Virus record (IMG/VR): IMGVR_UViG_3300044614_001341
Span: 32,001-96,000 of that record
Direction: 5' to 3' (one strand)
DNA: 64,000 nucleotides
From: a virus
The position numbers and the translations under genes are program-made. The notes below the pieces were generated by a model, which made no database searches, was not told where the DNA came from, and was given only the letters and a program-made list of their open reading frames with translations. Below, in pieces: positions 1 through 18,579 of this stretch; the first letter of the stretch is position 1; every line of letters starts with the position of its first letter.

Positions 1-65
1 AGTTCAATAATCCCCCTTTCAACGAATCTAAATCCTTCTCGTTCAAGAATAACTTTGGTACTCAT
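1..65 (-). CDS. hypothetical protein, 5' part only (MSTKVILEREGFRFVERGIIE..., runs off window)
   Basis: ATG at 63-65 overlaps stop of upstream ORF; frame open to window edge. Confidence 0.6.
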   Translation of the reverse strand, partial: MSTKVILEREGFRFVERGIIE

Positions 66-277
66 GCAACCTCAATGGACTCAAGATCGGCAAGAACGTA
101 TTCCATTAGCATTTCGTAGTCATCCAGAGGGTCTCCAGAAAATACTACACCTTCGTTCTCATAAAAACGACGGACTTTTTTATAAAGTTTCGGACTCTTT
201 ACATCAAGGTAGATTTCTCCGTTAGCAGCAAGACGAAGAGTGCTAACATCTTTCTTGAATTTTTGGATCAGAGACAT
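62..277 (-). CDS. hypothetical cyanophage protein
   Basis: 71 aa ORF downstream of sigma70-like promoter at 301-329. Confidence 0.75.
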   Translation of the reverse strand: MSLIQKFKKDVSTLRLAANGEIYLDVKSPKLYKKVRRFYENEGVVFSGDPLDDYEMLMEYVLADLESIEVA

Positions 278-300
278 TGTTTTGTTTTGTTTGCTCTAGT

Positions 301-351
301 ATTATAAGGGTTTGAGACTTGTGTGTCAAGTGTGCCAGTTAAGGAACTGGC
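301..351 (-). promoter_or_regulatory. sigma70-like promoter with upstream palindromic operator-like motif
   Basis: TTGACA (324-329), 17-nt spacer, TATAAT (301-306); palindrome GCCAGTT-N4-AACTGGC at 334-351. Confidence 0.75.
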
Positions 352-353
352 GA

Positions 354-427
354 TCGGGGTAATAGGATTCGAACCTACGACCTCCCGCTCCCAAAGCGGA
401 TGCGCTACCAAACTGCGCTACACCCCG
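354..427 (-). tRNA. tRNA-Pro(TGG)
   Basis: CGGGGTG acceptor, anticodon loop TTTGGGA, GTTCGAATC T-arm. Confidence 0.95.
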
Positions 428-435
428 TTACACCG

Positions 436-552
436 TTATTTAGTTCGGTGTATAAACATTATACCCATTATTGGAACGGTTGTCAACCCCATACCACATA
501 TAAACAACCAAACTGGACTATGTGCCAGATATTCTACAATATGAAAGATCAT
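436..552 (-). CDS. small membrane peptide (38 aa, MIFHIVEYLAHSPVWLFICGMGLTTVPIMGIMFIHRTK)
   Basis: manually translated; hydrophobic; tightly packed with neighbours. Confidence 0.55.
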   Translation of the reverse strand: MIFHIVEYLAHSPVWLFICGMGLTTVPIMGIMFIHRTK

Positions 553-661
553 TTTACATATGCGTGATCAAGTGACCAAATAATCAATAAACCTATTATA
601 CCAAAAATAGTCATTGCTGAAAATATTGTGCTACTCATATTTTCTTTTTCCATATAAAAGA

Positions 662-865
662 TTAGTTAAGAGTAATTTTAAGAAATGGGAGTAATGGTGG
701 AATAACACCGATTAACCTTAAAAGTCCCTCAGCAAATAGAGCAAGAACCACCCAACCGACGCACATACTAATGATAGAAGCATTGCGGTTGTGTCGTCGT
801 ATTGCTGCATCGATCATCTCCTGAACTTCTGAGCGCGTAATAAATTCTTCATGCTCATACATCAT
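662..865 (-). CDS. small membrane protein
   Basis: 67 aa ORF, hydrophobic C-terminal half. Confidence 0.7.
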   Translation of the reverse strand: MMYEHEEFITRSEVQEMIDAAIRRHNRNASIISMCVGWVVLALFAEGLLRLIGVIPPLLPFLKITLN

Positions 866-1011
866 TTTTCATCACCAAGAAACTTTGCAAGAGGATCTCT
901 CTTGGTTTTAACAATCTCAACTGCTCTTTTATAGAACATATTATCAGTGTTCCCAGAAGATTCGAATGTCTCCTTGATCTTCACCCAGTTATCATAGGTG
1001 TGCTGATCCAT
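862..1011 (-). CDS. hypothetical protein (49 aa, MDQHTYDNWVKIKETFESSGNTDNMFYKRA...)
   Basis: manually translated; ATGA overlap with downstream ORF. Confidence 0.65.
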   Translation of the reverse strand: MDQHTYDNWVKIKETFESSGNTDNMFYKRAVEIVKTKRDPLAKFLGDEK

Positions 1012-1125
1012 AGGGTTTAGGTTGAATACTACTAGTTATTCTAGTAAGTATTTCTACTATGTCAAGTTTGTGTTGATACGAAAATATAGATTAAAAAAAT
1101 CTAAAATTTTGTAATATTTGTAACA

Positions 1126-1211
1126 AGGAAGATCAGGGATTCGAACCCTGGAACGCTACTAACGTTAATAGTTTTCAAGACTATCGCCATCAACCACTCG
1201 GCCAATCTTCC
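1126..1211 (-). tRNA. tRNA-Ser(TGA)
   Basis: GGAAGAT acceptor, loop CTTGAAA, long variable arm, GTTCGAATC. Confidence 0.95.
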
Positions 1212-1222
1212 AAAATAAGTCC

Positions 1223-1480
1223 TCAGCGGACTTCAAAATCTAAACGTCTCACTTTACGCTGACGCCGTGCTTCTTGAAAAGCAAGGTCTTCGTTTGTAAG
1301 AACACCAGATTTTGATTTGGTATGTATAGAGTTTAGCATAACAACAGAGGATAAGTCAACTGCTGAAATTTTATCCCCACGAATAGTTGCCATATTTGAG
1401 CAACCACAAGATACTGTTTTCGTTTGATGCCCTTCCAACTCTCTATTACAAGAGCGGCATCTGATTCTTAAATTTTCCAT
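1223..1480 (-). CDS. small zinc-ribbon-like hypothetical protein
   Basis: CxxC and CxC motifs in 85 aa ORF. Confidence 0.7.
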   Translation of the reverse strand: MENLRIRCRSCNRELEGHQTKTVSCGCSNMATIRGDKISAVDLSSVVMLNSIHTKSKSGVLTNEDLAFQEARRQRKVRRLDFEVR

Positions 1481-1496
1481 CTCTACAATAAGTTAA

Positions 1497-1934
1497 TTAT
1501 TTTTCAGTAAATGATCGAAGCATCCAAACGAATTTGCCGTGTGCTTCATTTAAATCATCAAGAAGATTAACTGTTCCTCTTGACTTTTGTTCGTCTGCTT
1601 CCATAGCAGCATCAGAAAGCATGGTAATTATTTTTTGATGTCCATCCATCAAATCACGAATCATTTCCATTTCGGAAATATTAGATTTTGCTTCACCAAT
1701 ACCAGAAACTTCTACAACTCTAGACAAAGAACTAACTGGTTTGATTTCAAGAAATCTCATATGCTCGGCAATACGATCAACTTCTTCTTGAAGAGCAACA
1801 TACTGTTCACCAAATAAGTCATGAATCTGCTTAAAATCAGGTCCAACAACGTGCCAATGATAAACCCAAGTCTTCTGAAAGAGGACAAACAAACTTGCCT
1901 GAGTATCAGAAAGTAACTTATATAATTTTTCCAT
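1497..1934 (-). CDS. dps: Dps/ferritin-like DNA-protection protein
   Basis: HWHVVGPDFKQIHDLFGEQY and DRIAEH ferroxidase signatures, terminal WML; late promoter TATAAATA at 1957-1964 favours start at 1934. Confidence 0.9.
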   Translation of the reverse strand: MEKLYKLLSDTQASLFVLFQKTWVYHWHVVGPDFKQIHDLFGEQYVALQEEVDRIAEHMRFLEIKPVSSLSRVVEVSGIGEAKSNISEMEMIRDLMDGHQKIITMLSDAAMEADEQKSRGTVNLLDDLNEAHGKFVWMLRSFTEK

Positions 1935-1967
1935 TACACCAATACTTTTTTTCAAGTATTTATAAAG

Positions 1968-2039
1968 TGGGCGATACTGGATTCGAACCAGTGACCTAAT
2001 CCTTGTAAGGGATCCGCGCTACCGCTGTGCCAATCGCCC
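1968..2039 (-). tRNA. tRNA-Val(TAC)
   Basis: GGGCGAT acceptor, loop CTTACAA, GTTCGAATC. Confidence 0.95.
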
Positions 2040-2045
2040 AATAAA

Positions 2046-2219
2046 TCAATCAGGATAACTAGATTCTAGCATAAATTCTACTGTATTTGCAATATCATTC
2101 ATAGCATCACGAAGAAATGGTTGTTGACCAGATTCTTGCCTACGAACAGGGCGAGAGGAATCACATAAGGTCCATCGCCATTGTTGCATAGATTCACAGT
2201 ACCAGAGTGTTATTTTCAT
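2046..2219 (-). CDS. hypothetical protein (57 aa, MKITLWYCESMQQWRWTL...)
   Basis: manually translated ORF filling the gap between terminator and tRNA. Confidence 0.65.
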   Translation of the reverse strand: MKITLWYCESMQQWRWTLCDSSRPVRRQESGQQPFLRDAMNDIANTVEFMLESSYPD

Positions 2220-2253
2220 TTTTTAAATGCTCTAGTTTAATCAGATTTGGGAA

Positions 2254-2270
2254 GGGGGGTTTCACCCCCC
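2254..2270 (-). terminator. stem-loop downstream of porin gene
   Basis: GGGGGG-TGAAA-CCCCCC hairpin, weak U tract. Confidence 0.5.
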
Positions 2271-2294
2271 AGTTTACACTATGTAGTTAGAATA

Positions 2295-3779
2295 TCAGAA
2301 CCTAAACTGGGTCTGAATCACACCACCATAGTTAGAAGAAGCATTCTTGAATCCTTGATTATTGGAAACATAGAAGATTGCAGGAGTGATGCTAATATTA
2401 TCACTCACACGATAGCGATAGAAGGTTTCCCACATCAGAGCATCCTTAGTGAGGGAAGCAGCATTGCCAGGAGCACCGATGGCAAAACCAGCAGCATTAC
2501 CCTTAGCAAACACATCTGCCCACTGGACACCAGCAAACCAAGTCTCAGACTTAGTAGCAGCACGGGGAGTAGCAGGACCTTCTACAGTGTTCCACCCATA
2601 AGCACCACTCACAGAAGGAATGATGCCAGACTTCTTAGGTTGCCAGTAAGCATTCACGGCATAACCATTAGAGGTTTGATTAGCGGCAAGAGTACCAGCA
2701 TTACCAGAAACACCATTGAAGGTGCGAACACGAGTGCCTTCAGTACCATAACGATAACCAAATGCGATGCCATACTGAGGAGCACGATAACCAAACTGTG
2801 CCAGAGTATTCAAAGCACCAGATTCATCAAATTCCCCTTTGCTAGAATCGGAACCGTTCTGGGCAACATAGTTCACACCAGCAACGAATCCACCCTTACC
2901 TTTCTTAGTAGGTTGTGCCCACTGAGCACCGAAACCAGAACCAGTTGCTTTGTTGTAAACACCAGGAGCGCCTGCAACAGCAAAGAAGTCCAGAATGTCA
3001 GACTTATAAGCAGTAGGAATCCAAGACATCTCAGTGTTACGAACCAGAGCACCAGCAGTCAAATTGAGACCTTTGGTGAGAGCAGGAAACTGATAGTACA
3101 GACGATCAAGTTGTACTTGGTTAGAAGTGCTTTCTGCCTTATCCAGTTTGAACAGAGACGAAGAAGAACCAAAGGGTTGACTGGAGAAATTACCAGAACG
3201 CAGACGAGTCTTCAGCAAATCCTTGCCAGTGAAAGAAGTATCGAAGTTCAGACGAACATCATAGTTGAATGCTGTGTTGCCAACGTTAGTGTTGTTAGCA
3301 AGACGAGCACCTTCTACACCACCAAGAACGAAGGTTGCTTCACCACGCAGTTTAGATGTAGTGGAGAACTGAGTTGCTTGAAGTTGACCAACTTGTGCTT
3401 CCAGTTTATCAACACGACCACGAATAACTAGAAGTTCTTCAGCAAATTCTTTCGAAAGACGCTGAAGTTCATCAGTTACTTCAGTTACACGATCCAGACA
3501 GGCATTCAGGAGTGCTGCTGCCTCATAACGGGTCATTGCCTTACCACCACCATAAGTGCCGTTAGGATATCCTGCTACGCAACCATAACGCTCCACAAGG
3601 TTGCTAAGTGCCTGATATGCCCAATCAGAAGGTTGAACATCAGAGAATTGAGTGACGCTTGTTGCCTGCTCAGAAGAGTATTGATTGACTGCTGCAATAT
3701 TAAGGTCTGCGGCATTCGCAACAGCAGGAGCAATCATACCAAGAGCAACAGGTGCAAGCATCAGTTGTTTGATTTTCAT
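2295..3779 (-). CDS. cyanobacterial outer-membrane porin (Som-type, SLH + OprB barrel)
   Basis: signal peptide, SLH motif FSDVQPSDWAYQAL...MTRYEAAALL, FSTTSKLRGE, LDRLYYQFP, C-terminal Phe. Confidence 0.92.
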   Translation of the reverse strand: MKIKQLMLAPVALGMIAPAVANAADLNIAAVNQYSSEQATSVTQFSDVQPSDWAYQALSNLVERYGCVAGYPNGTYGGGKAMTRYEAAALLNACLDRVTEVTDELQRLSKEFAEELLVIRGRVDKLEAQVGQLQATQFSTTSKLRGEATFVLGGVEGARLANNTNVGNTAFNYDVRLNFDTSFTGKDLLKTRLRSGNFSSQPFGSSSSLFKLDKAESTSNQVQLDRLYYQFPALTKGLNLTAGALVRNTEMSWIPTAYKSDILDFFAVAGAPGVYNKATGSGFGAQWAQPTKKGKGGFVAGVNYVAQNGSDSSKGEFDESGALNTLAQFGYRAPQYGIAFGYRYGTEGTRVRTFNGVSGNAGTLAANQTSNGYAVNAYWQPKKSGIIPSVSGAYGWNTVEGPATPRAATKSETWFAGVQWADVFAKGNAAGFAIGAPGNAASLTKDALMWETFYRYRVSDNISITPAIFYVSNNQGFKNASSNYGGVIQTQFRF

Positions 3780-3839
3780 AAAAATGTTTTTTGTGTACTA
3801 AACGACAATGTAAAGATTTACAACAAAGTAAATCTTCGT

Positions 3840-3921
3840 TATTTAGGGGGTCTTAAGCAAACCTTAAGATGAGAGTATCTTACAGCACTTTTGGTCTTAT
3901 GTCAATTAAGATTTGGTTAAG
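3840..3921 (-). promoter_or_regulatory. porin promoter region: sigma70 promoter, Pho-box-like repeats, late promoter
   Basis: TTGACA(3900-3905)-17-TAAGAT(3877-3882); CTTAACCA-AAT-CTTAATTG repeat abutting the -35; CTAAATA at 3840-3846. Confidence 0.6.
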
Positions 3922-3922
3922 A

Positions 3923-3993
3923 AGCGAATGACGGGGATCGAACCCGTGACACCAACTTGGAAGGATGGGATGTTACCGCTACACCACATTCGC
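3923..3993 (-). tRNA. tRNA-Gly(TCC)
   Basis: GCGAATG acceptor, loop CTTCCAA, GTTCGATCC. Confidence 0.93.
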
Positions 3994-4039
3994 AATGTGG
4001 GAGATTTGACTCTCCCAGCACTTCACTTCACACGGAAGT
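3994..4039 (-). ncRNA. candidate small RNA / structured tRNA-Gly leader
   Basis: own promoter (4044-4072); single-stranded 5' ACUUCCGUGUGAAG then hairpin UGGGAGA-GUCAAA-UCUCCCA. Confidence 0.4.
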
Positions 4040-4043
4040 ATAA

Positions 4044-4072
4044 AGTATAAGACATAATGAGTATTATGTCAA
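4044..4072 (-). promoter_or_regulatory. sigma70-like promoter with internal palindrome
   Basis: TTGACA-17-TATACT; GACATAAT-N4-ATTATGTC inverted repeat spans the spacer. Confidence 0.7.
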
Positions 4073-4143
4073 GCCCCCGATCTGATTCGAACAGACGACC
4101 AACGGTTTACAAAACCGTTGCTCTACCACTGAGCTACAAGGGC
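4072..4143 (-). tRNA. tRNA-Thr(TGT)
   Basis: GCCCTTG acceptor, TAGCTCAGTGGTAGAGC D-arm, loop TTTGTAA. Confidence 0.95.
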
Positions 4144-4222
4144 AACGCGGGGGTGATCAATTCCCCGACCTAACAAAGTTAGGATTTAGAAAGGAAGACC
4201 CAGACATTTCCAGACCTTCCAA

Positions 4223-4295
4223 CTCCCCCAGTTTGACTCGAACAAACAACCTCAGAGTTAACAGCTCCGCGCACTGCCAATTGTGCTATAGGGGA
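4223..4295 (-). tRNA. tRNA-Asn(GTT)
   Basis: TCCCCTA acceptor, loop CTGTTAA, GTTCGAGTC. Confidence 0.93.
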
Positions 4296-4445
4296 TTGGT
4301 GGTAGGAGGGATTTCTATGTGCAGACAGAATCACCTTTCACATCATCCAGACTAAACCAGCGAGAGGTGTTGCACTTCCTACATTTGATGGATTAAGTGT
4401 GATACACCTCATAAGGATGTAACAGGGACTTAACCTCTATCACTT
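4296..4445 (-). ncRNA. candidate structured non-coding RNA(s)
   Basis: nested complementary segments GTAGGA/TCCTAC, GTGCA/TGCAC, CACCT/AGGTG; second domain TTAAGT/ACTTAA enclosing TACATC/GGTGTA; no ORF in the track. Confidence 0.4.
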
Positions 4446-4452
4446 TTATATA

Positions 4453-5016
4453 TTACACTAATTCTGAAATAATGTCAAGTCTAAGTTCTGCGTGTATTTC
4501 TCTATGACAATTAGCACATACACATACACACTTATCAAGTTCTTTTTTCTGGTCTTCCCATTTTCTTAATTTTAAATTTCCAAAATTTTTATCTTTTTGA
4601 TCTGGGTCAATATGATGAAATTCTAAGGCATCAATACATTTATTATATCCACATTTTTCACATTTTCCACCCTTATACTCTACTGCTTTTTTCTTACTAT
4701 TTTTCCACCTATCAGCATTATAATTGTTATGGCATTTTTTACAATTTGCTTGCCATACCTTTTTACTTTCACGCCAATATCCAGTTTCTTCATTTAAAAA
4801 AATTCCACATTTGGAGCAATTTTGTATTGGTTTACCATCAACTCTAAGAATATGATTTTCACCAATATAACCGTCACTAAATGATTTATTTGCCGTTTTC
4901 AATTTATACTTATTCAACCAATATCTAATACTTGTAGCACTTTTATTTGTTTTTTTACCAATATCCCTTATAGACATTTTTTGTTCCACAAAGGATTTAA
5001 GAATAGAATATTCCAT
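4453..5016 (-). CDS. HNH endonuclease with N-terminal HTH and Zn fingers (tRNA-cluster associated)
   Basis: GGKCEKCGY...ALEFHHIDP...CANCHREIH HNH signature. Confidence 0.88.
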   Translation of the reverse strand: MEYSILKSFVEQKMSIRDIGKKTNKSATSIRYWLNKYKLKTANKSFSDGYIGENHILRVDGKPIQNCSKCGIFLNEETGYWRESKKVWQANCKKCHNNYNADRWKNSKKKAVEYKGGKCEKCGYNKCIDALEFHHIDPDQKDKNFGNLKLRKWEDQKKELDKCVCVCANCHREIHAELRLDIISELV

Positions 5017-5063
5017 TAGTTCAGTAGATATATATTGTTATTTATACAACTGAACTATTATAG

Positions 5064-5136
5064 CAGGCGTATCAGGATTCGAACCTGAGATAAGGCTTTA
5101 GAAGAGCCGTGTGATAATCCACTTCACCATACGCCC
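5064..5136 (-). tRNA. tRNA-Arg(TCT)
   Basis: GGGCGTA acceptor, loop CTTCTAA, GTTCGAATC. Confidence 0.93.
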
Positions 5137-5140
5137 ATAA

Positions 5141-5204
5141 GTAGGTTCCTATCGCCGCCACTCCTGAACCTACCGAAGGGGAGTGCCGCAGTTGATCTCT
5201 CAAC
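5141..5204 (-). ncRNA. candidate pseudoknotted RNA in tRNA-Arg leader
   Basis: CACTCC/GGAGTG stem whose loop GTAGGTTC pairs with downstream GAACCTAC; promoter TTGACG-17-TATAAT at 5211-5239. Confidence 0.45.
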
Positions 5205-5241
5205 TCTCATATTATAGCAGTCCTTGAGAGAGTCGTCAAGG

Positions 5242-5323
5242 TGGGCAGGGAGGGATTTGAACCCCCGTAGGCAGAGCCAGCGGATTTACAGTCCGCCTCC
5301 ATTAACCACTCGGACACCTGTCC
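5242..5323 (-). tRNA. tRNA-Tyr(GTA)
   Basis: loop CTGTAAA, variable arm, GTTCAAATC; one A-C mismatch in acceptor stem. Confidence 0.92.
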
Positions 5324-5385
5324 AAGATTTAAAGTATAGAATGGGGGAGGAGTATTGTCAACTCCTCCCAACCTATTCTATTGTA

Positions 5386-6048
5386 TCAAACTTCTACCGT
5401 GATCAGTCGGTTAGCATACTCATGAGCATACGAAGTGCGGGCACCATGAATGCCCCAACCAATCCAACTATACGCATAGTCCATGTAACGATTGATAGAC
5501 TTACCAGGAGTTTTCATCCTATCTGCAATTCGTTTCCATTGAACCTCAGTCGTTAGATAACCAAGTTGCGTTTGAAGAGATGATGGATTTCCACCAAACC
5601 TTCTAGCAAAATCACCCAATCCATAATAACGATCGGCAGATGTCCATTGGATCAGACCATAACCACGTCCGCAGTGATGGTACTGAGTCCTACTACCACC
5701 TTCACAAATATTAGGCACGAACATAGATTCCTGCTTAATATTGCCCAGGATAGTAGCAAGGGCGTTTCTGTCTTTAATTCCTTGCTCTTGGAAATAATCC
5801 AGAGCAAGTTGTTCATGTTCATTACACCCTTTACAAATTAACCTTTTCTCTTTTGGCTTTTCGGGAGCAACCTCTCGGATTGCTGTCTTCTTTTCATCTA
5901 CAAGATCAAACTCCCTAATAACAGAAAATGGTTTCGAATCCACTGGAGGTGGTGGACCCTGCATCTTGTAGTTGACGAATGGCAGTGTTGCCGTACTGGT
6001 TGTAACCGATGCCAAAAGGGGCAGGGTTACAGTAAAGAATTGTTGCAT
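5386..6048 (-). CDS. phage tail-lysozyme-like (Phage_lysozyme2-type) muralytic protein with N-terminal hydrophobic leader
   Basis: ATILGNIKQES...GYGLIQWT...R motif; start reassigned to ATG 6046-6048. Confidence 0.75.
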   Translation of the reverse strand: MQQFFTVTLPLLASVTTSTATLPFVNYKMQGPPPPVDSKPFSVIREFDLVDEKKTAIREVAPEKPKEKRLICKGCNEHEQLALDYFQEQGIKDRNALATILGNIKQESMFVPNICEGGSRTQYHHCGRGYGLIQWTSADRYYGLGDFARRFGGNPSSLQTQLGYLTTEVQWKRIADRMKTPGKSINRYMDYAYSWIGWGIHGARTSYAHEYANRLITVEV

Positions 6049-6241
6049 TAATTTTAATTGAACTCTACATCCGTATAGAAGGGGGGTACACCACCTCTCT
6101 CGAAGGGCACCTTCCACGGCTCTAATGTCACTTCAATGACTCATAATAAGAAACCCGCCATTTTGTAGCGGGCTTGTACATAATAAGTTAATATTTATGA
6201 TCTGTCAAGTGGACCAAGTGGACCAATTGAAAAACTGTCTC

Positions 6242-6249
6242 CATAAATA
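6242..6249 (+). promoter_or_regulatory. T4-type late promoter (CATAAATA) for plus-strand operon
   Basis: ATAAATA about 25 nt upstream of ATG 6273. Confidence 0.65.
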
Positions 6250-6272
6250 CTTACACACCATATTTCAGAACG

Positions 6273-6734
6273 ATGAAAAGATTAGCACTTATCTTTTCGT
6301 TATTCTTCACTACTCCTGCTTTTGCTGGCGAAATCACATCAAAAATCACTGACTCAATTCAATTAGGCGTTCAGGGTGCAGCGGTACAATCAGAAAGAGT
6401 AGGAGCATCCTACGCTGTCTCGGGCACAAACATTAATGTAACAACTCTTGGAGGAGTTGGTGGAGCAGGTTCTTATGACATCAACACAAACGGGCAAGCA
6501 TTTAGTTTCTCTGAGACATCAATTACTGCAGATGTTGATGTTACCTCTCAGTCGGCAGCTTCTGGAACAATTGCTTCTCCCAACCTTTACGGCAACTCTA
6601 CTACTCAGTTAGGTGGTGATAAAGGTTCTCTCGCAGGTACTTTGAGTGGAACTACCGTTCCTAGCGTAACTGCTGGTGGGTCGGGAACCACGGCAACAGC
6701 ACAACGTAGCGTAGAACTGAGCGTATTCAAGTGA
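6273..6734 (+). CDS. exported Ser/Thr/Gly-rich beta protein, unknown function
   Basis: Sec signal peptide ending AFA; paralogous to next ORF. Confidence 0.8.
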   Translation: MKRLALIFSLFFTTPAFAGEITSKITDSIQLGVQGAAVQSERVGASYAVSGTNINVTTLGGVGGAGSYDINTNGQAFSFSETSITADVDVTSQSAASGTIASPNLYGNSTTQLGGDKGSLAGTLSGTTVPSVTAGGSGTTATAQRSVELSVFK

Positions 6735-7093
6735 GACGCATAACTCTCGGACTGCTTACAGTTCTGGGAGTTATAAGTCCTTCATATGCTGGACCAGTAA
6801 CTCCCAACTTCACCAGTGGGACAATTACCTCCGAAACGAAAACGCGAACTGAAGTTATTGAAACTATCAGACAAATAGAATACACTACTGGAACATCTTA
6901 TACAGTCACTGGAACCAACATCAATATACCAGGAACTCCTGCTCCTGGTATGAATTACACAATTCAAACTCAAGGTGCTCCATTCCAATTTAGTGAGACT
7001 TATCTGACTCCTGGAGTGGCAAAGGAAACATGGATAGACAGAAAAACTACAGAAGATTCTTTAACAAACACAATATCAGTCTTTACGCAGTAA
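6731..7093 (+). CDS. exported Thr-rich beta protein, unknown function
   Basis: signal peptide ending SYA; GTGA overlap with previous stop. Confidence 0.8.
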   Translation: MRRITLGLLTVLGVISPSYAGPVTPNFTSGTITSETKTRTEVIETIRQIEYTTGTSYTVTGTNINIPGTPAPGMNYTIQTQGAPFQFSETYLTPGVAKETWIDRKTTEDSLTNTISVFTQ

Positions 7094-7632
7094 TAATTTT
7101 ATTGTTGACATTGACTGGATCGAGTAAAGGACAACAAGCACCAAGCAATACAAATATTGCAGGACCCTCAGCATCTGCGACTGGTAACGTAACTAACCAG
7201 GCAGTTCAGGTGCTTCAGGGTCCTTTTGCTTTAAATACTTATGGTGGCGGAGTTTCTTGCCAGGGTCCCACAATGAGTGTCGCACCGTTTATATTGGGAA
7301 ATACAAACTATAATGAGGACCCACAATCATTCCAATCTTATAGTGGAAATGCTGGTATCTCTTTTGGATTTAATTTTCCTCTAGATGGTTCATTACAAGA
7401 ACTTTGTAAAGCAAGAGTTCGTGTAGAAATTTCAAGGCAACAAGCAGAAGCAGATAAAGGAAGACTTGACTTTGAGCTTGTGAGACTTTTGAAGTGTGGT
7501 GAAGCACTGAAAAATGGAATTTCATTTCACCCAGAAAGTCCTTATGCAAAAATTTGTGCTGATATTGTTGTGAAGTATCCACAAGTACAGGATATAGCAA
7601 ATGGAAATCAAACAAATACAGATAAGAAGTGA
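7030..7632 (+). CDS. exported protein with putative membrane beta-hairpin and helices (4 Cys); start uncertain
   Basis: hydrophobic leader; CQGPTMSV...NAGISFGFNFPLDG followed by amphipathic helices. Confidence 0.75.
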   Translation: MDRQKNYRRFFNKHNISLYAVIILLLTLTGSSKGQQAPSNTNIAGPSASATGNVTNQAVQVLQGPFALNTYGGGVSCQGPTMSVAPFILGNTNYNEDPQSFQSYSGNAGISFGFNFPLDGSLQELCKARVRVEISRQQAEADKGRLDFELVRLLKCGEALKNGISFHPESPYAKICADIVVKYPQVQDIANGNQTNTDKK

Positions 7633-8275
7633 ACCTCCACCTATCATTCCAACGATAGAACCCCCTGTAACTCGCAGCACAGAACGTTCTATCGTACCTC
7701 AAATTGATATTCCCATCATCAATATGCCAGATACAACTATCAAGTATCCAGTAATTGATGTTCCAACTCAAGAAGAATTTGATGCTGCAGTCAGAGCGGA
7801 ACAAAAAAAGAAAGAAGAAGAAAAAGAAGAAAAAAGTAGAGGACTTCCTGATACTGCACCAGTTATACCACAACAACTTGTACAGCAGGATGTACAAGCA
7901 GTACAAGTTCCCACACAAGTTGAAACATCAAATACAAATTTAGGAGTACCGGTCATTGAAGTACCAATCGTCGGGGAAGTTCCAGTTCCTCCAAAAGAAC
8001 AGGTTATACTTGCTGGCACCACTGCTACTGCTTCTGTTGCTGCGGCTCTTATTGGCAAATCTTTGGTGGAATGGATGGTAGGTAAAATGAAACCTATTGT
8101 TCAGCAGATATTCGTAAGGGGTAAGAAACTTTTAAGCAAAGATCTTACCCCATATGAAACTCAGGTTTATTTTGCTTTCGAAAAATCTTCTTCTCTAAAG
8201 AAGGTCAATAAGTTACTCAAAAAAGAACAAAAGACTGAAAAGAAAGACCAATATAAAAAGTTTCACTCAAAGTGA
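7601..8275 (+). CDS. Pro-rich membrane-anchored protein, unknown function
   Basis: Pro-rich N-terminus, E/K run, hydrophobic segment VILAGTTATASVAAALIG, basic C-terminus. Confidence 0.75.
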   Translation: MEIKQIQIRSEPPPIIPTIEPPVTRSTERSIVPQIDIPIINMPDTTIKYPVIDVPTQEEFDAAVRAEQKKKEEEKEEKSRGLPDTAPVIPQQLVQQDVQAVQVPTQVETSNTNLGVPVIEVPIVGEVPVPPKEQVILAGTTATASVAAALIGKSLVEWMVGKMKPIVQQIFVRGKKLLSKDLTPYETQVYFAFEKSSSLKKVNKLLKKEQKTEKKDQYKKFHSK

Positions 8276-8290
8276 TTATTAATTTCAATA

Positions 8291-8503
8291 TTAAAAAGGA
8301 AACTTAATACTGGGAGTATTAAGTTTCGGAATAGGTAGTTTCTCAAATGCTTTCGATACTTGCTTCTCTACAACAGCACCAACAAACTCTTCCGGATTAT
8401 CTAGAATCTTCTGTGCTTTTTGATAAGTAATGTATGCTCCCACACAAAGAGCACCACTAATGGTGAGACTTGTGATTGATAGGATCAGACTCAGATGTTT
8501 CAT
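8291..8503 (-). CDS. small membrane-anchored protein
   Basis: N-terminal TM segment, 70 aa. Confidence 0.7.
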   Translation of the reverse strand: MKHLSLILSITSLTISGALCVGAYITYQKAQKILDNPEEFVGAVVEKQVSKAFEKLPIPKLNTPSIKFPF

Positions 8504-8609
8504 CTTGCATCTCCAAATATGCTAACTTTAATATGTAGTAAATGACATATGCAGTAAATATCAAACCAGAACAAAGAATTATAATTACGCCCCAAGGAAA
8601 TTCATTCAT
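8457..8609 (-). CDS. small membrane peptide (50 aa, MNEFPWGVIIILCSGLIFTAYVIYYIL...)
   Basis: manually translated; single TM; overlaps both neighbours. Confidence 0.55.
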   Translation of the reverse strand: MNEFPWGVIIILCSGLIFTAYVIYYILKLAYLEMQDETSESDPINHKSHH

Positions 8610-8802
8610 CCCAAACACCCTCTTGTTTATGAATCCAAATTTTTAAATCTTTAACGTATTTTCTTAGAATTTGTGCTTGTTCTTCGTGCCAAAAATCACC
8701 CGTCTCCATATGAAGGCGGGTGTGATTATCTATGGCTTTAAGTATTTGATGTATTGGAGGATTCCAACACTCACGCTTGGGAGTGTTCCACTCTCTTGGC
8801 AT
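8602..8802 (-). CDS. hypothetical cyanophage protein
   Basis: 66 aa ORF with GAGG SD. Confidence 0.7.
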   Translation of the reverse strand: MPREWNTPKRECWNPPIHQILKAIDNHTRLHMETGDFWHEEQAQILRKYVKDLKIWIHKQEGVWDE

Positions 8803-8811
8803 AAAACCTCA

Positions 8812-8919
8812 TTATTTTTTCTTACCACCATTCTTCGCTTTTTTGGCAGTAGCATTACCAGAGTTCTGCTTTTTATTATTTGCAGAACCCTTCTTACCTT
8901 TGTTTGCTGATTTTGCCAT
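8812..8919 (-). CDS. very basic 35 aa peptide (MAKSANKGKKGSANNKKQNSGNATAKKAKNGGKKK)
   Basis: manually translated; TAATG coupling and AGGAG SD. Confidence 0.6.
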   Translation of the reverse strand: MAKSANKGKKGSANNKKQNSGNATAKKAKNGGKKK

Positions 8920-9275
8920 TATGCTCCTGTGCGTGGTTGAACGAATCCTTCACCATCTTCTACTTTAGTTTCAAGTGCTTCAACTCTTGCTTCAAGAGTT
9001 TCTGGTGGTGCTTCAGGGGAAGGTGGTTCTGGTGGAGTTTCTACAAACTCCTCCCTCTTTGGTTGATCTTTCTTTTCATCTTCATCATCACCACCTTTCT
9101 TCATTGTATTGATGCCAAAAGTGGCAGCAGATGCTGTGAAGACTGTAGCGATAAAAGTTGGGTCCATCTTAGATAGAGTACCCGCATAACTTGCAGTGAG
9201 AAGAGCGGCAGACCAACCCAAGATACATATACGAATTAATTGTCCCATAGCATTTTCGTTTTTCTTAGTAGCCAT
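8919..9275 (-). CDS. two-TM membrane protein, putative holin
   Basis: two hydrophobic helices then charged/Pro tail; directly downstream of lysozyme. Confidence 0.55.
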   Translation of the reverse strand: MATKKNENAMGQLIRICILGWSAALLTASYAGTLSKMDPTFIATVFTASAATFGINTMKKGGDDEDEKKDQPKREEFVETPPEPPSPEAPPETLEARVEALETKVEDGEGFVQPRTGA

Positions 9276-9293
9276 TTTCCTTTGTGAATAGGG

Positions 9294-9965
9294 TTAACCT
9301 TTTTTCCAAGATTCACCTTCTGCTTTTCTTCTACGAGCAAGTCCTGCTTCTACATTGGAACCAGGATTTCTGTAGAGATATAAAGCATCGGGAACTAAGT
9401 CCCATTCTTTATTCTTCAGTCTCTTAGTGATAGTATTAAAATCACCAGAACCATAAAAACCAGCACCGAGATTATAAGCAAAAGAAAGTAGGGCACCTCT
9501 TTTACCATCAGACATTTCATTCCAGTGTGGAATTTTACGAAGTGCAGGAAGAAATTCTCTCTTGCATTGTTCAATCAAAAGTTCATCTGCTTCTTGTTGG
9601 GTAAGTGTATCACCCATATGGAATGCAGATCCATCTTTCTTACGAGTTGAACCCCAACCAATTGTGATTGGAAGTCCACCAGTGAGAGGGTCTGGATATG
9701 CTTTGAGGTGACATCCTTCAAACTCTTTGATCAATTTAAGTCCCATCATAGGCATATCGTCACCACCAACTACAGGAGCGGCAGCAGATGGTGCTGATGC
9801 TGGTGCCGCATTACCCTTTTTTCCTCTGTAGATCTCCGCCCAATCTACATTATCTTCTAGATACTTGACTGGTAGATTATCTTCTAACCATTGAACTGCT
9901 TTCACATGATTAGGGTTCTTCTCGTCATAGAACTTGAAGAAGTTATGTAAATCGATTCTTGCCAT
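9294..9965 (-). CDS. endolysin, GH24 lysozyme with extra N-terminal domain
   Basis: IKEFEG...YPD...ITIGWG catalytic motif, SFAYNLG, GLARRRKAE; GGAG SD before ATG 9965. Confidence 0.9.
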   Translation of the reverse strand: MARIDLHNFFKFYDEKNPNHVKAVQWLEDNLPVKYLEDNVDWAEIYRGKKGNAAPASAPSAAAPVVGGDDMPMMGLKLIKEFEGCHLKAYPDPLTGGLPITIGWGSTRKKDGSAFHMGDTLTQQEADELLIEQCKREFLPALRKIPHWNEMSDGKRGALLSFAYNLGAGFYGSGDFNTITKRLKNKEWDLVPDALYLYRNPGSNVEAGLARRRKAEGESWKKG

Positions 9966-10092
9966 TGTCGTCTCCAAAGTATTTGTTGAAAAGTTTGGAA
10001 GCTTCTAAATGCTTTCCGTGATTTGTAAGATCTTTAATTCTTTGCAAGATCTTTCTCTTGAAATTAATCGAAGATTCTGCCCCATCCATCAT
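9943..10092 (-). CDS. small hypothetical protein (start uncertain)
   Basis: ORF bridging the peptidase and lysozyme genes. Confidence 0.45.
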   Translation of the reverse strand: MMDGAESSINFKRKILQRIKDLTNHGKHLEASKLFNKYFGDDNGKNRFT

Positions 10093-10735
10093 TGCCCCCT
10101 GGACACCAACGGTGCTTAAGAACTGCTTTGGTATAAATGGTTTTCTTACCATTCGTTACGGGACCAGTATAATTGTCATTGAGAGAACCATAAGGATCAT
10201 TAATATAATATCCCTTACCATCTGGAGTCTTACCAATGACCACGCACATGTGCCCACCAGTAGGAGAAGTTAGAGAACCACGGTGGAGAATACCAATAAC
10301 AACAGGTTTTCCTCTATCAAGACTCTTATCAATATCAACAAAACTTAAATTATAACTAAAGTGTGATTTAATACCATAACCTTGTAGAACTTTAGTCTGC
10401 ACTGCATGGTCTGTAGTATCACCAATCGCAAATACTTTCTTAACATACTCATCATCACCTTTAATGCTTCCTGGTTTGAGGAAAGCAAGACACATTGCAC
10501 ACGATGAAGAGTTGCAAGTTCTTTGTGCATCTCTATAGTTGTCTACTTGGTTAAAGTATGGAACATCAAGAACTGCTGGAGTTGGTGGTTTTGTTCTAAA
10601 AATTCCAATCCATTCAGATTCTGAGTCATCCATAAATTGAGCAGGAAGGTTATCCTCTAACCATTGAACTGCTGCTACATGATTCACATTACCATCATCA
10701 TAATACTTAAAAAAGTTATGAAGATCTAATGTCAT
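10064..10735 (-). CDS. C39-like cysteine peptidase with N-terminal domain shared with the lysozyme
   Basis: LDVPYFNQ, CNSSSCAM (Cys), GGHMCVVIG (His), INDPYG (Asp). Confidence 0.85.
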   Translation of the reverse strand: MTLDLHNFFKYYDDGNVNHVAAVQWLEDNLPAQFMDDSESEWIGIFRTKPPTPAVLDVPYFNQVDNYRDAQRTCNSSSCAMCLAFLKPGSIKGDDEYVKKVFAIGDTTDHAVQTKVLQGYGIKSHFSYNLSFVDIDKSLDRGKPVVIGILHRGSLTSPTGGHMCVVIGKTPDGKGYYINDPYGSLNDNYTGPVTNGKKTIYTKAVLKHRWCPGGNDGWGRIFD

Positions 10736-10778
10736 TATACCTCTTTTCTGACACTAGAGATATTTATAAAATGCTCAA

Positions 10779-10958
10779 TTAATCTCCAATATATTCCAAT
10801 GAAAAAATATCATGCTCCAAAATATCTGGATCTAACCATTCATTAAATTCTTTTTGAATGGCATGAGCATTTTCATAATTTTTTTCTTCGCATAGTGAGT
10901 GCATACGGTCAATTGCCCAATCATGTGAGATACGAAGTGTATTTTCAAGAATTGTCAT
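10779..10958 (-). CDS. hypothetical cyanophage protein
   Basis: ORF overlapping end of upstream nuclease gene; start reassigned. Confidence 0.6.
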   Translation of the reverse strand: MTILENTLRISHDWAIDRMHSLCEEKNYENAHAIQKEFNEWLDPDILEHDIFSLEYIGD

Positions 10959-11376
10959 TAAAATAATCCTTTCTAAAATATCTGGAGAGAATATTGCTAT
11001 TGTAGTATGCAGGTTCTCCAGAGTCAAGTGCTTCAGTCAATACATTATTAAGAAATAGTTGTCTCGTTTCTTCAAAATTACATTTACCTTTGGTCTTATG
11101 AAGACTTATTATTTCTCTATTGAAAAACTCTTTGCCATACTTAATCACGTCTTCTTTAAGTTCTGGACAGGAACCATAATATTTTTTCCAATCAGACTCT
11201 GATTTAACTTTTCTAGATTTTCCCTTCGGTGTGCGAAAAGACCAGAAGTATTTCCTACCCACATATCTGCGATTAGTTTTACTGCAAGATATGAGATATA
11301 CAAAACCAAAATAATCTTCAATATTAGAAGACTCAAAAATTTCTCCATTGAATCTCCAAGGATTCTCATAGCTCAT
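10945..11376 (-). CDS. GIY-YIG nuclease (endonuclease II-like)
   Basis: GFVYLI...RYVGRK, WKKYYGS, YYN motifs. Confidence 0.8.
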   Translation of the reverse strand: MSYENPWRFNGEIFESSNIEDYFGFVYLISCSKTNRRYVGRKYFWSFRTPKGKSRKVKSESDWKKYYGSCPELKEDVIKYGKEFFNREIISLHKTKGKCNFEETRQLFLNNVLTEALDSGEPAYYNSNILSRYFRKDYFNDNS

Positions 11377-11481
11377 ATAGTAATCTTATAGAGCTATTAT
11401 TTATCTTCAACGCTAGCAAAGCGATTTTAGCAACAAAAAAGGGTCTTGTCAAGACCCTTTGAGAACCTTATGGTTTTTATA

Positions 11482-12828
11482 TCAAACTCCAGGAAGTTGT
11501 GGTCCTGTACGCTTTAGAGCAGATTGTGCTTCATTTGGGTTATTTGTTCCCTTTCCCAAATTATAAATCTTTTGAGTTTTTTGTGCTGCTTTATGAGCAG
11601 TGGGATCAATTGGTTCAGGCATTACACCTTCAACAATGCTTTTAATGTTTTCACTATCCATTTGCATCATTACATAAAGTGCTTCTTCTAAGGTGTCTAC
11701 GTGCCCCTGTGAGAAGAGATACTCAAGGACTAAATCATAGGCATCATTCATCATTTTTTGCTCCTTGACTGGGTTTTTGGAAGCACTAACTCCAGCTTTG
11801 ACTGCCGATAGTTCTTGTTCTTTTGTAGATTGTCCTGCAGACTTTGCTTTATCTCTTGCTTCTCGTGCTGCTGCTAGTTCTGCAGAAGTTGCTGCCCTTC
11901 TTTCAAATTTAACTCCACCTACAGACCCTAGAGCATATCCTGCAGGGGATTTTTCAATCTTTGGTTGTGGTGCTGGTCTAGGTGCAGGAGCAGTTCTTGC
12001 AACAGGAGGTTGTGCTGCAGGTGCAGGTGAAGGTCTAAGTGTAGGTGGCGGCGGGGTTGCTCTTCCTGCATTTGGATCTCCAACCCAATCACCACTAGTA
12101 CGAAATTCTGGATCTCTTCTTTTATTTTGTTCAGAATCCCATCTTTCCTTAGCTTTTTTTGCAGCTTCTGGATCCGTAATGGGTACATATTTTCCTGCTT
12201 TATTTTTTTGATACCATCCTCTACCACCCTTTCCAGTTACTGGCGCTACTTGTGCTGGTGCTTCTGTTACTAAGGAATCATTTTCAGATTCGAAATGATT
12301 GACAATAACTGCCCCTTTTGGATCTTTTTTTACTGTTGGTGTTTGTCTTGCTACTGGCGGTTTTCCAGTTGGAGTTCTCCTTCCAGATCTAACATCCGGA
12401 TCTGCCGACTTTTCTGGTGGAGGAACTAGCCATTGACCCAATTGTTTGCCTAGATCTTGACTTTGAGTAGGTTTAGGTGTTTGGGTTGAAATTTCTTTTG
12501 CAGTTGGTGGTTTGGATTGTGGTTTTCCGCCACCGGAACCAAGAACTCTTTCAACAGATTTACCAATTTTTTCTAAATCTACAGAACCACCGGTAGCAGC
12601 TTTTGTTATTCCTGAAATTGCCGATCCAGCATAATCCGCAACGGATTTAATAACTCCAGCAACTGGAGTTGCGATTTTATCACTCTCTCTACCAACTACT
12701 CTAGCACCCTTTTCCCACTGCTTAGAAACGTCACTCTGCTGCTCGTCTAACTCAGTATTGTTATGAGAATAAATTGATCGGTAAATATCATCAATTTCAT
12801 TAATTTTTTTCGAAGAAAGCTCGCCCAT
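11482..12828 (-). CDS. low-complexity late protein with YDxVLEYL..EG-type helical domain; probable internal virion protein
   Basis: late promoter TATAAATA 12857-12864; P/A/K-rich; domain shared with 43782 and 44380 ORFs. Confidence 0.7.
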   Translation of the reverse strand: MGELSSKKINEIDDIYRSIYSHNNTELDEQQSDVSKQWEKGARVVGRESDKIATPVAGVIKSVADYAGSAISGITKAATGGSVDLEKIGKSVERVLGSGGGKPQSKPPTAKEISTQTPKPTQSQDLGKQLGQWLVPPPEKSADPDVRSGRRTPTGKPPVARQTPTVKKDPKGAVIVNHFESENDSLVTEAPAQVAPVTGKGGRGWYQKNKAGKYVPITDPEAAKKAKERWDSEQNKRRDPEFRTSGDWVGDPNAGRATPPPPTLRPSPAPAAQPPVARTAPAPRPAPQPKIEKSPAGYALGSVGGVKFERRAATSAELAAAREARDKAKSAGQSTKEQELSAVKAGVSASKNPVKEQKMMNDAYDLVLEYLFSQGHVDTLEEALYVMMQMDSENIKSIVEGVMPEPIDPTAHKAAQKTQKIYNLGKGTNNPNEAQSALKRTGPQLPGV

Positions 12829-12863
12829 TTTACTACTAGATAGTTCTTTATAATGATATTTAT

Positions 12864-12889
12864 AAAAAAAGAGGGTCCGAAGACCCTCT
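12864..12889 (-). terminator. Rho-independent terminator after nrdB
   Basis: AGAGGGTC-TTCG-GACCCTCT followed by T tract. Confidence 0.85.
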
Positions 12890-13020
12890 CACACATTTAA
12901 TAAACATCGTTACTCTTTGAGTCTTTCCAAACATAAGAGTAATCATAATCACCAAATAAAAAAAGATCCGATTCTGCAGCATCTTTATATGCGTTCAGGA
13001 GTTCCTGTTCGCACCATTCA

Positions 13021-14205
13021 TCATAATTGGAATCCTGAGAAAGTATCTTTGGTAACATCTTGTTTGATTCCCCCGACGATATAGGACTCAACTTCCGTTT
13101 CCTGGGGTGCCACTTGAAGTCCCTTAGAGGAAATCCAATGCTCAGTCCAAGGAAGTGGATTGTTCTTTGCTGGAATATCATAAAGTGGGCGAAGACCGAT
13201 TGCCTTCATTCTACGATTTGCAATCCATTCAACATACTGCTGCAACAGTTTGTCATTTAGACCAATCATAGATCCATCCTTGAACAGATATTCTGCCCAA
13301 AGTTTTTCTTGATTGACTGCGTTCTCAAAGGTCTTGTAGACCCACTGCTCTTCTTCTTTGGAAATACGTGCCATCTCAGGGTCATCACCTTCTTTCCATT
13401 TGTTGAGAATGTTTTGAGTAATGACCAAGTGCTGATTTTCATCTCTAGCAATTAGAGAGATGATTTTTGCACTTCCTTCCATAAGTTTGAGTTCGCCAAA
13501 TGCAAAACTGCAAGCGAAACTGACGTAAAAGCGAATACCTTCAAGAATATTAACGTTTGCAACTGCTCGAAAGAGTTTGCGCTTGAGTTCATACCTTGCC
13601 TCTTGTGCGTATGGTACTTGTTCTAATGCATGAATCCATTCATTAGTTGAACCATAATGTTGAGCACTATTAATGAAGTCGTTATATGCCTCAGTTACAC
13701 TGACGGCACGTTCCATAATACGATCCTCTTTGAGAATAGTATCAAAGACTTCAGATGGATCTGAATAAACATTCTTGATAATATAAGTGTATGAACGGGA
13801 ATGAATCATTTCCATAAACTCCCAAACCTTCATACACGCTTCTAGTTCGGGCAGTGAACAGTATGGAGCAAATGCCATACCAGGTCCACGACCCTGAACT
13901 GAGTCCAGCATCACCTGATACTTCAAGTTACTGGTGAAGATGTGCTTTTGTTCTGGGCGAAGAGATTGGTAATCTCCACGATCTTTTTGGAGGGAGACCT
14001 CTTCAGGTCTCCAGAAATAACCCAATTGCTGTGTTGTTAGTTTATCAAAAATTGGATACTTGTAAGAATCATATCTTTGGATTCCTAGTGGTTGACCAAA
14101 AAACATAGGTTGCTTTTTGGTGTCTACTTCCTGAGGATTAAAAACGGTCATTGATTCGACCATTGATTTTTCCTCCAAACCTGTTTTAAATCTTACAAGA
14201 CTCAC
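13021..14205 (-). CDS. nrdB: ribonucleotide reductase class Ia beta subunit
   Basis: FWRPEEV, DSVQGR, EMIHSRSY, LEGIRFYVSF, DENQH, VAPQETE. Confidence 0.97.
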   Translation of the reverse strand: MSLVRFKTGLEEKSMVESMTVFNPQEVDTKKQPMFFGQPLGIQRYDSYKYPIFDKLTTQQLGYFWRPEEVSLQKDRGDYQSLRPEQKHIFTSNLKYQVMLDSVQGRGPGMAFAPYCSLPELEACMKVWEFMEMIHSRSYTYIIKNVYSDPSEVFDTILKEDRIMERAVSVTEAYNDFINSAQHYGSTNEWIHALEQVPYAQEARYELKRKLFRAVANVNILEGIRFYVSFACSFAFGELKLMEGSAKIISLIARDENQHLVITQNILNKWKEGDDPEMARISKEEEQWVYKTFENAVNQEKLWAEYLFKDGSMIGLNDKLLQQYVEWIANRRMKAIGLRPLYDIPAKNNPLPWTEHWISSKGLQVAPQETEVESYIVGGIKQDVTKDTFSGFQL

Positions 14206-14287
14206 AATCTTCCTCCTCTGTTTAAATTAACTTTTGGAAAAATTCTACACATTCTATTTACCTCCAAAAAATATTTGGGTTTCATAA

Positions 14288-14566
14288 TTAAACCTCAATA
14301 ATCAAAACATCTTTTTTAGTCATAGGAATTTTAACATCCTGTTTTTTACCGTCAAACTCATCACAATAATCACAAATTTCTTCAGTAAAGGAATAATAGT
14401 CAATATTACTTTGCCACTTTGTAGTGTAATTACAGTAATTGATTGATGATTGGAAGATGGCAAACTCATCCTCAATATTCTCATAATAATTGTCCTTGTA
14501 TATAATCAGGACTTCCATATCATCAGGATATTGTAAAAGTGCTTCTTTTAGATGTTTAACTTTCAT
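14288..14566 (-). CDS. acidic hypothetical protein
   Basis: MKVKHLKEALLQYPDDMEV start; ATGA overlap with endonuclease stop. Confidence 0.6.
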   Translation of the reverse strand: MKVKHLKEALLQYPDDMEVLIIYKDNYYENIEDEFAIFQSSINYCNYTTKWQSNIDYYSFTEEICDYCDEFDGKKQDVKIPMTKKDVLIIEV

Positions 14567-15246
14567 AACTCTTGATAACTCCATCTGTATCCTTTACAGT
14601 GATTGAATTTTCCTTCACAGGTATATTTAATGTTAGAAGGATTTGTTTCTACAAATTTAGCAGCATCACTAATAGATTGAAACTCTCTTAAAAAGTTTCC
14701 TTCAATATCATACTGGAATACTTTGGTTCTTTTTATGTTTGGATTGTTTTTTAGTGTTTGAGAAGTTTTAGATTTACTTTCTTCTTTGTGTGATTTTCCA
14801 GCAAATCCACAAGGAGATGGTTGTCCCTTTCTCATTTTACTCCACTTTTCTTTTTGTTCTTCGGTATGTGTTTGATTGTAGAATGGATTTTCTTCTTTAA
14901 TAAATTTACCTTTTCTTTTTAATGACAATAGTTGCTTCGTTTTTTCTGTATGAGAATACCCAAGCATACCACCATCACCACCAAGAGTTTGATTATATTT
15001 TGGTTTTAATTTAGAAATCCAAAACATTTCTCTAAAACCTAAATTATCTTCACATTTTTCAATTTCTTCAATAATAAAATTGTCTTTTCCATACTTTCTA
15101 ATTGCCCGATGAAGATATGTTGTTGAACTTCTTTTAGTGGCATCATAGCAGTGACTATAAAATCTTTTTTTCAAAGAGTTCATTGTCTTTCCAACATAAG
15201 TTTTATTATTGATTTTATTGGTTATTAGATAAATGCGTCCAGACAT
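14563..15246 (-). CDS. free-standing GIY-YIG homing endonuclease (NUMOD3/NUMOD1 repeats)
   Basis: IYLITNKINNKTYVGKT, YNQTLGGDG, HTEKTK repeats, VFQYDIEGNFLREFQSI. Confidence 0.9.
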   Translation of the reverse strand: MSGRIYLITNKINNKTYVGKTMNSLKKRFYSHCYDATKRSSTTYLHRAIRKYGKDNFIIEEIEKCEDNLGFREMFWISKLKPKYNQTLGGDGGMLGYSHTEKTKQLLSLKRKGKFIKEENPFYNQTHTEEQKEKWSKMRKGQPSPCGFAGKSHKEESKSKTSQTLKNNPNIKRTKVFQYDIEGNFLREFQSISDAAKFVETNPSNIKYTCEGKFNHCKGYRWSYQEL

Positions 15247-15298
15247 AGATATTATTAAAACCTATTACTATTTATAATAATAGGTTTTAATAGTTTTG

Positions 15299-18567: not shown

Positions 18568-18579
18568 TATGAAGGTGCT

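Follow-up and report, generated by a model that had tools for sequence, protein, structure and literature searches.

Can the 5' leader of a phage tRNA, a by-product of tRNA processing, be put to use as the regulator of a late gene? The locus that raises this question lies in a 64,000-nt stretch of DNA, called the window here, which covers positions 32,001-96,000 of IMG/VR record IMGVR_UViG_3300044614_001341, a viral record of 114.6 kb with an estimated completeness of 56%. The source phage is a T4-like (Kyanoviridae) freshwater cyanomyophage, and the nearest named relatives of the window are the freshwater Kyanoviridae Synechococcus phage S-SRM01 and DSL-LC02. The genes of the window and its ten tRNAs lie mostly on the minus strand. 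To our knowledge, little has been learned about regulatory RNAs in lytic phages, and the 5' leaders of tRNAs are regarded as waste. An initial annotation of this DNA proposed that the leader of one tRNA-Gly pairs with the ribosome-binding site of a late gene.

The tRNA-Gly leader and its 5' end

The leader lies between two tRNA genes and is preceded by a promoter of its own. The features of this region are as follows.

4072-4143, minus strand: tRNA-Thr (UGU), found by ARAGORN, with an Rfam tRNA match of 68 bits
4044-4072, minus strand: sigma70-type promoter TTGACA-17-TATACT, 11 of 12 consensus matches, between tRNA-Thr and tRNA-Gly
3994-4039, minus strand: tRNA-Gly 5' leader, predicted length 46 nt, from the inferred start to the inferred RNase P site
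4026-4033, minus strand: conserved 5'-terminal seed GUGUGAAG, 6-10 nt after the -10 hexamer in nearly all promoter-bearing contigs
3998-4017, minus strand: 7-bp leader-closing hairpin (arms 4017-4011 and 4004-3998), from folding
3923-3993, minus strand: tRNA-Gly (UCC), found by ARAGORN and Rfam

The -35 hexamer TTGACA occupies 4072-4067 and shares its first T with the last base of tRNA-Thr at 4072. A 17-nt spacer separates it from the -10 hexamer TATACT at 4049-4044, and the predicted transcription start is the A at 4039, 5 nt past the -10. From there the leader runs to the mature 5' end of tRNA-Gly, which it abuts, with four bases between the hairpin and the tRNA. The sigma70 promoter, leader and 7-bp hairpin described ahead of tRNA-Gly in the initial annotation are thus all present as sequence features on the minus strand. 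The leader folds at -16.6 kcal/mol (z -3.2). It does not contain an intrinsic terminator: downstream of the hairpin come ACAUU and the tRNA, and a U-run is absent; the 3' end of the leader would then come from RNase P. In an Rfam search of window positions 1-6500 and of loci with the two longer leader types only tRNAs were found at E <= 1, with no family for any of the three leader types described below. Public RNA matches come from freshwater and riverine metatranscriptome contigs and cover at most 12% of sampled words; they are fragments of relatives over 3500-21000, without RNA ends.

Conservation of this arrangement is extensive. The 22-nt piece comprising the -35 and spacer is identical in 93 IMG/VR contigs, lies nearly always between tRNA-Thr and tRNA-Gly, and is better conserved than the flanking tRNAs. 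The promoter together with a 5'-terminal GUGUGAAG(G) is kept in at least 95 IMG/VR cyanophage contigs and in the isolate S-SRM01. Variation at the -10 is confined to TAnnnT; 6-10 nt follow, then GUGUGAAG(G), and usually then AAGUG. What comes after the seed is one of three unrelated structured domains, either a GNRA-capped hairpin as in the window or domains that give a leader of about 70 or about 90 nt. The hairpin has in most relatives a 6-7-bp stem with a GNRA tetraloop, and it shows compensatory A-U/G-C changes across 28 distinct leaders. Three genomes (G051, G052 and G064) have an HNH endonuclease ORF inserted in the leader. The seed is the constant part of the leader, present whichever domain or HNH ORF comes downstream. 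Its position is always the predicted extreme 5' end, and it is mostly unpaired by prediction.

This pattern narrows the element originally proposed. The initial annotation took a 14-mer (4026-4039) as the seed; an 8-9-nt core, GUGUGAAG(G), is indeed conserved, whereas relatives differ in the first 6 nt of the 14-mer, which belong to the variable segment 3' of the -10. If transcription starts at 4039, the first 15 nt of the leader can in this phage fold on themselves (ACUUC with GAAGU, 5 bp). The predicted mean unpaired probability of the seed is 0.74-0.85.

Several further observations concern the tRNA region itself. The tRNA-Gly promoter region contains a perfect 8-bp inverted repeat with arms at 4070-4063 and 4058-4051. 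This arrangement recurs at tRNA-cluster promoters (4051-4070 and 5333-5372 in the window, and loci L322, L331, L336, L341 and L208), where inverted repeats run from GACA in the -35 to TGTC at or after the -10. In different promoter alleles the arms differ yet stay complementary, which suggests a putative hairpin, in the trailer of the upstream tRNA or in DNA, that overlaps each promoter. An alternative promoter allele of tRNA-Gly is found in at least 120 contigs. A separate near-consensus promoter, TTGACG-17-TATAAT with TG, also serves tRNA-Arg (5137-5239, minus strand), whose leader is structured and about 70 nt long, so long structured tRNA leaders recur in this phage. An imperfect hairpin directly 3' of tRNA-Asn (4193-4220, minus strand) is found nearly letter for letter in S-SRM01 and recurs in G053; the spacer around it differs among the window, S-SRM01 and G053, unlike the hairpin itself. 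In a related 234-kb phage contig, an Rfam abiF RNA match above the gathering score (L021 6138-6174; 44.8 bits, E 1.9e-5) adjoins the tRNA cluster. The HNH ORF at L319 1661-2124 (also in L320 and L321) interrupts the tRNA-Gly leader downstream of the seed, which reads GUGUGGAG there, and upstream of the structured domain.

The late gene and its 5'UTR cassette

The putative partner of the leader is the 5'UTR of a short late ORF, and the lysozyme gene of the window bears on what that ORF may be.

20273-20452, minus strand: 59-aa small hydrophobic late ORF, putative target, with 330 IMG/VR relatives; phrog_3509
20457-20475, minus strand: 5'UTR cassette with the core CUUCACGC, the seed complement with one G-U, flanked by the Shine-Dalgarno (SD) GGAGG
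20483-20489, minus strand: T4-type late promoter element CTAAATA, from enrichment, conserved upstream of the ORF in relatives
9294-9977, minus strand: Phage_lysozyme gene, from Pfam, about 10.5 kb from the 59-aa ORF

The SD of the ORF lies at 20462-20458 and its ATG at 20452. The late promoter assignment comes from the motif NTAAATA, which occurs 10-60 nt upstream of 36 of the 149 predicted genes against 3.2 expected (about 11-fold). With a T4-type late promoter ahead of the target ORF, the layout of an early RNA and a late mRNA put forward in the initial annotation holds.

The same cannot be said of the label "holin-like". The ORF has no Pfam match, phrog_3509 carries no assigned function, and the lysozyme gene is far away, its neighbours having no assigned function. 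Nor is lysis timing, the role suggested in the initial annotation, supported. A protein atlas search with the 59-aa ORF returned viral hypothetical proteins only, and tblastn against isolated phages found DSL-LC02 alone, which is without leader and motif. A 118-aa DUF6450 ORF (8919-9275, minus strand) lies directly downstream of the Phage_lysozyme gene, and this pair (8919-9977) is plausible as the likelier lysis module of the window.

The 5'UTR is organized as a cassette. In relatives the late promoter is followed by GGAUAC and a C/U run, then by CUUCACAC and the SD, which a short spacer separates from the AUG. The element CUUCACAC is the complement of the seed, and it sits beside the SD within the conserved cassette. 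Conservation spans about 20 nt, beyond what pairing needs, and AUAC upstream of the core could form a second short helix with the leader. More than 117 contigs contain a 15-mer taken from the cassette; 15-mer matches in four unrelated contigs (G068, G072, G075 and G079) are by chance and were dropped. The motif-plus-SD pattern occurs in exactly one copy each in G000, G001, G002 and G032 and is absent from the complete, leaderless G033.

The cassette is not tied to one protein. Two small ORF families that are unrelated to each other follow it at the same locus, the first beginning MSALVAW and the second MGAVVAVVKPLL, and further loci with the cassette before the two families are L381-L497. In S-SRM01, where the leader is also present, a non-homologous 58-aa ORF stands behind the cassette at the syntenic site (L362 1501-1700, which is S-SRM01 168446-168639). 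The UTR motif is retained in G001 although the ORF protein is just 54% identical. The 5'UTR is also predicted to fold on itself, CUUC pairing with GGAG in a hairpin that would sequester the SD and AUG; this hairpin is no better than those of shuffled sequences (z -1.7).

Predicted pairing and co-occurrence

The complementarity is present as the initial annotation described it. Positions 4039-4026 pair without a gap over 14 bp (12 Watson-Crick and 2 G-U) with 20470-20457, a stretch that spans the SD. The duplex energy from RNAduplex is -23.5 kcal/mol, and 4 extra pairs lie beyond a 3-nt bulge. When the first 21 nt of the leader were scanned with RNAduplex against the 327 candidate ribosome-binding regions of the record, the target site ranked first, at -23.5 against -17.9 kcal/mol for the next. 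It is also the best site on either strand of the 114.6-kb record, the leader's own antisense aside. Ranking the seed genome-wide, a check suggested in the initial annotation, cuts both ways: the target comes out on top and only 1.25% of 400 shuffled seeds reach -23.5 kcal/mol, yet 2.9% of 420 native intergenic 21-nt windows match some ribosome-binding region equally well. At that rate a scan of all spacers should yield about a dozen equal matches, and the match in a single genome is therefore not significant by itself.

A second target that had been named, the DUF6450 ORF at 8919-9275 next to the lysozyme gene, was rejected, as its pairing is weak (-12.3 kcal/mol, rank 32 of 327). A second helix, in which leader AGUGU pairs with UTR AUACU behind a 2-3-nt bulge, is found in the window and in G032; it is not retained in all leader variants and was set aside as a general feature and treated as optional. 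When the orthologous ribosome-binding region is scored against each genome's own leader, it ranks 1 of 618 in G032, 16 of 772 in G001 and 78 of 591 in G002, and the ranks in the last two are modest. In a combined score over 70 ortholog groups, the target group is top, narrowly so without the window.

Comparison among genomes is more informative about whether the two sites belong together. The two loci are about 17 kb apart, and both are readable in 46 genomes, of which 24 have leader and motif, 20 lack both, and 2 are discordant, one in each direction. Fisher's test gives p 8e-11, or 2e-8 on distinct rows, both figures ignoring relatedness. Put differently, CUUCACAC lies beside the SD in 24 of the 25 leader-bearing genomes. 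The two discordant cases are G021, with the leader and a motif that has a terminal mismatch, and G067, which has a perfect cassette but the other, leaderless promoter allele of tRNA-Gly. Leader-like motifs elsewhere in the leaderless G030, G031, G033 and G067 were discarded as chance or coding-region matches without a promoter.

Clade structure alone is an unlikely explanation of this pattern. Both states are found in family 2 as well as in each of the two deep clades of ORF family 1. The ORF protein of G053 is 95% identical to that of G001, and G053 is without both elements. In leaderless genomes that keep the cassette flanks, the 8-nt motif itself is mutated, in several different forms. Since the ORF is short, tree-controlled contrasts are few: well-supported branches yield 3 and the best tree up to 7, and every one of them is concordant. 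Applied to the 3 well-supported pairs, a sign test returns p = 0.25, and 7 of 7 concordant would give about 0.016 by our own calculation.

At the level of single bases, leader-bearing genomes show two internal substitutions, A to G in the UTR of the window and A to G in the leader of G051, and both are compatible with G-U pairing. Three terminal changes in the pairing core break a pair. An association between the UCCG form of the leader and the CGG form of the UTR was looked for and none was found. The conserved core of 8-9 bp is nearly invariant, so there is no true compensatory covariation. That the leader 5' end and a site adjoining the ribosome-binding site are conserved, complementary, and kept or lost together nevertheless suggests that a tRNA by-product may serve as a gene regulator.

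Mechanism, alternatives and known systems

We favor a tRNA-leader-derived riboregulator with functional coupling between leader and UTR, in a narrower form than first proposed, with an 8-9-nt seed and one target cassette, and we give this reading about an even chance. It is built on sequence features, conservation, complementarity, co-occurrence and predicted accessibility, from which we infer the transcription start, RNase P release, RNA stability, pairing in vivo and the direction of the effect. Host sigma70 RNA polymerase would start at the conserved promoter between tRNA-Thr and tRNA-Gly. The transcript would open, within 0-6 nt, with single-stranded GUGUGAAG(G), followed by a stem-closed domain (one hairpin in this phage, 70- or 90-nt domains in relatives) and then tRNA-Gly. 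An RNase P cut at the 5' end of the tRNA would free the leader, which in this phage measures about 46 nt, and the hairpin would shield the 3' end of the resulting small RNA. Its 5' end would pair with CUUCACAC directly 5' of the SD in the short 5'UTR of 20273-20452, and an RNA made from an early-type promoter could in this way delay a small hydrophobic late protein or set a threshold for it.

The direction of the effect is best considered from the reach of the duplex. In this phage the 14 bp extend over the whole SD, which makes translational repression the most likely effect. Where UCCG precedes the seed, the duplex would take up 3-6 nt of the SD. About half of the leader-bearing genomes have a leader that starts with GUGUG, and there the duplex ends before the SD. 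Because the 5'UTR can fold into an SD-sequestering hairpin, activation is equally conceivable. Extended to a large clade of freshwater T4-like cyanophages, the proposal is that a tRNA-Gly leader released by RNase P carries an early-made seed that gates a small late protein by way of a portable late-promoter/5'UTR cassette; we put this forward tentatively, at slightly under an even chance.

Leader and cassette might instead be two independently conserved cis elements whose complementarity is incidental, which we consider rather unlikely. The purine-rich leader 5' end would then serve the tRNA transcript as initial transcribed sequence, SD-like stabilizer or processing signal, while the late 5'UTR cassette would work on its own as a hairpin that sequesters the SD, and the co-occurrence would come from shared ancestry or linkage within about 17 kb. 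By simple counting, an 8-mer complement is expected in some ribosome-binding region about 0.3-0.6 times per genome; 2.9% of native intergenic windows equal the match of the 14-mer, and a purine-rich leader and a pyrimidine-rich UTR arm could each mimic an SD or anti-SD for separate reasons. Against this reading stand 44 concordant genomes to 2 discordant ones across mosaic backgrounds; they come from two deep clades and from both ORF families, and the ORF tree shows at least 7 leader-state changes, although the tree-controlled test is underpowered. The case for a cis hairpin rests on its pairing of CUUC with GGAG and on the conservation of the cassette past the paired core, but such a hairpin would need no conservation of its loop ACAC, and the UTR fold is no better than shuffles (z -1.7). 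G067 retains the cassette without the leader, and other tRNAs of the cluster also have their own promoters and structured leaders, as independent elements would allow; against this, decay in leaderless genomes is centered on the 8-nt motif and spares its flanks, among them the SD and the anti-SD C/U run.

The same leader-UTR pairing could also activate translation by an anti-antisense mechanism, with the leader binding the 5' arm and loop (UCUUCACAC) of the UTR hairpin and freeing the SD, so that translation of the late protein would depend on continued sigma70-driven transcription of tRNA-Gly. We regard this as improbable. The hairpin predicted to sequester the SD and AUG is what this mechanism calls for, but it is weak and does not stand out significantly from shuffled sequences. 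In the roughly half of leader-bearing genomes with a GUGUG start the duplex does not reach the SD, and the optional second helix lies upstream of the core rather than over the SD; in the window and all UCCG leaders, by contrast, 3-6 nt of the SD are covered. A further alternative, to which we assign a very low probability, is that the shared 8 bp are bound as double-stranded DNA by a single protein of phage or host, the site acting in opposite orientations at the tRNA-Gly promoter (around +1) and at the small ORF's late promoter. The motif is neither palindromic nor repeated, which argues against such a site even though both copies lie about 10-25 bp downstream of promoter elements. A common regulator would likewise yield co-occurrence, and the conserved inverted repeat at the tRNA promoter is already suggestive of a binding site; the motif, however, occurs once per genome beside an SD and otherwise at chance level, its substitutions fit G-U pairing rather than one DNA consensus, and no candidate protein was identified.

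If the favored reading of the leader as an RNA regulator is correct, it would be the first case of a phage regulator that originated in the 5' leader of a tRNA, and riboregulation derived from tRNA precursors would be widespread in freshwater cyanophages. The tRNA clusters of large phages would then also be a source of regulators. It would provide a concrete post-transcriptional circuit from early to late expression in environmentally abundant cyanophages, and the cassette shared by unrelated small ORFs would be a compact, transferable module of translational control. S-SRM01 holds both leader and cassette, which makes the proposal testable in a cultured system.

The closest parallel is found in E. 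coli, where spacer RNAs of tRNA precursors, the 3'ETS of glyW-cysT-leuZ and the ITS of metZWV, reportedly act via base pairing, as Lalaouna et al. are said to have described in 2015. In both settings a by-product of tRNA processing would function through a short complementary stretch. The phage element differs in being a phage-encoded 5' leader with a dedicated promoter, and its release would depend on RNase P, not RNase E. Its partner is the ribosome-binding region of an mRNA and not another small RNA, so the leader would be a regulator rather than a sponge.

In design, the leader resembles small RNAs with a 5'-end seed, such as RybB, OmrA/B and the cyanobacterial PsrR1 and IsaR1. Like these, it has a conserved, predicted single-stranded 5' seed of about 8-9 nt, a structured body and a target site that adjoins the SD. 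Unlike them, it lacks a Rho-independent terminator, and its 3' end would be made by RNase P at the tRNA; it also apparently has a single target per genome and has no known chaperone.

The tRNA cluster of phage T4 encodes two stable small RNAs, species 1 and 2 (rnaC/rnaD), for which we know of no function or target. These are likewise small non-tRNA RNAs from the tRNA region of a T4-like phage, matured with the tRNAs, whereas what defines the cyanophage element is its conserved seed together with the site in an mRNA that matches it. For the rival direction of effect, the model is the anti-antisense activation of rpoS by DsrA and RprA, in which a small RNA binds the 5' arm of an SD-sequestering leader hairpin, as the phage leader might. 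In the window, by comparison, the duplex would reach over the SD itself, which fits repression better.
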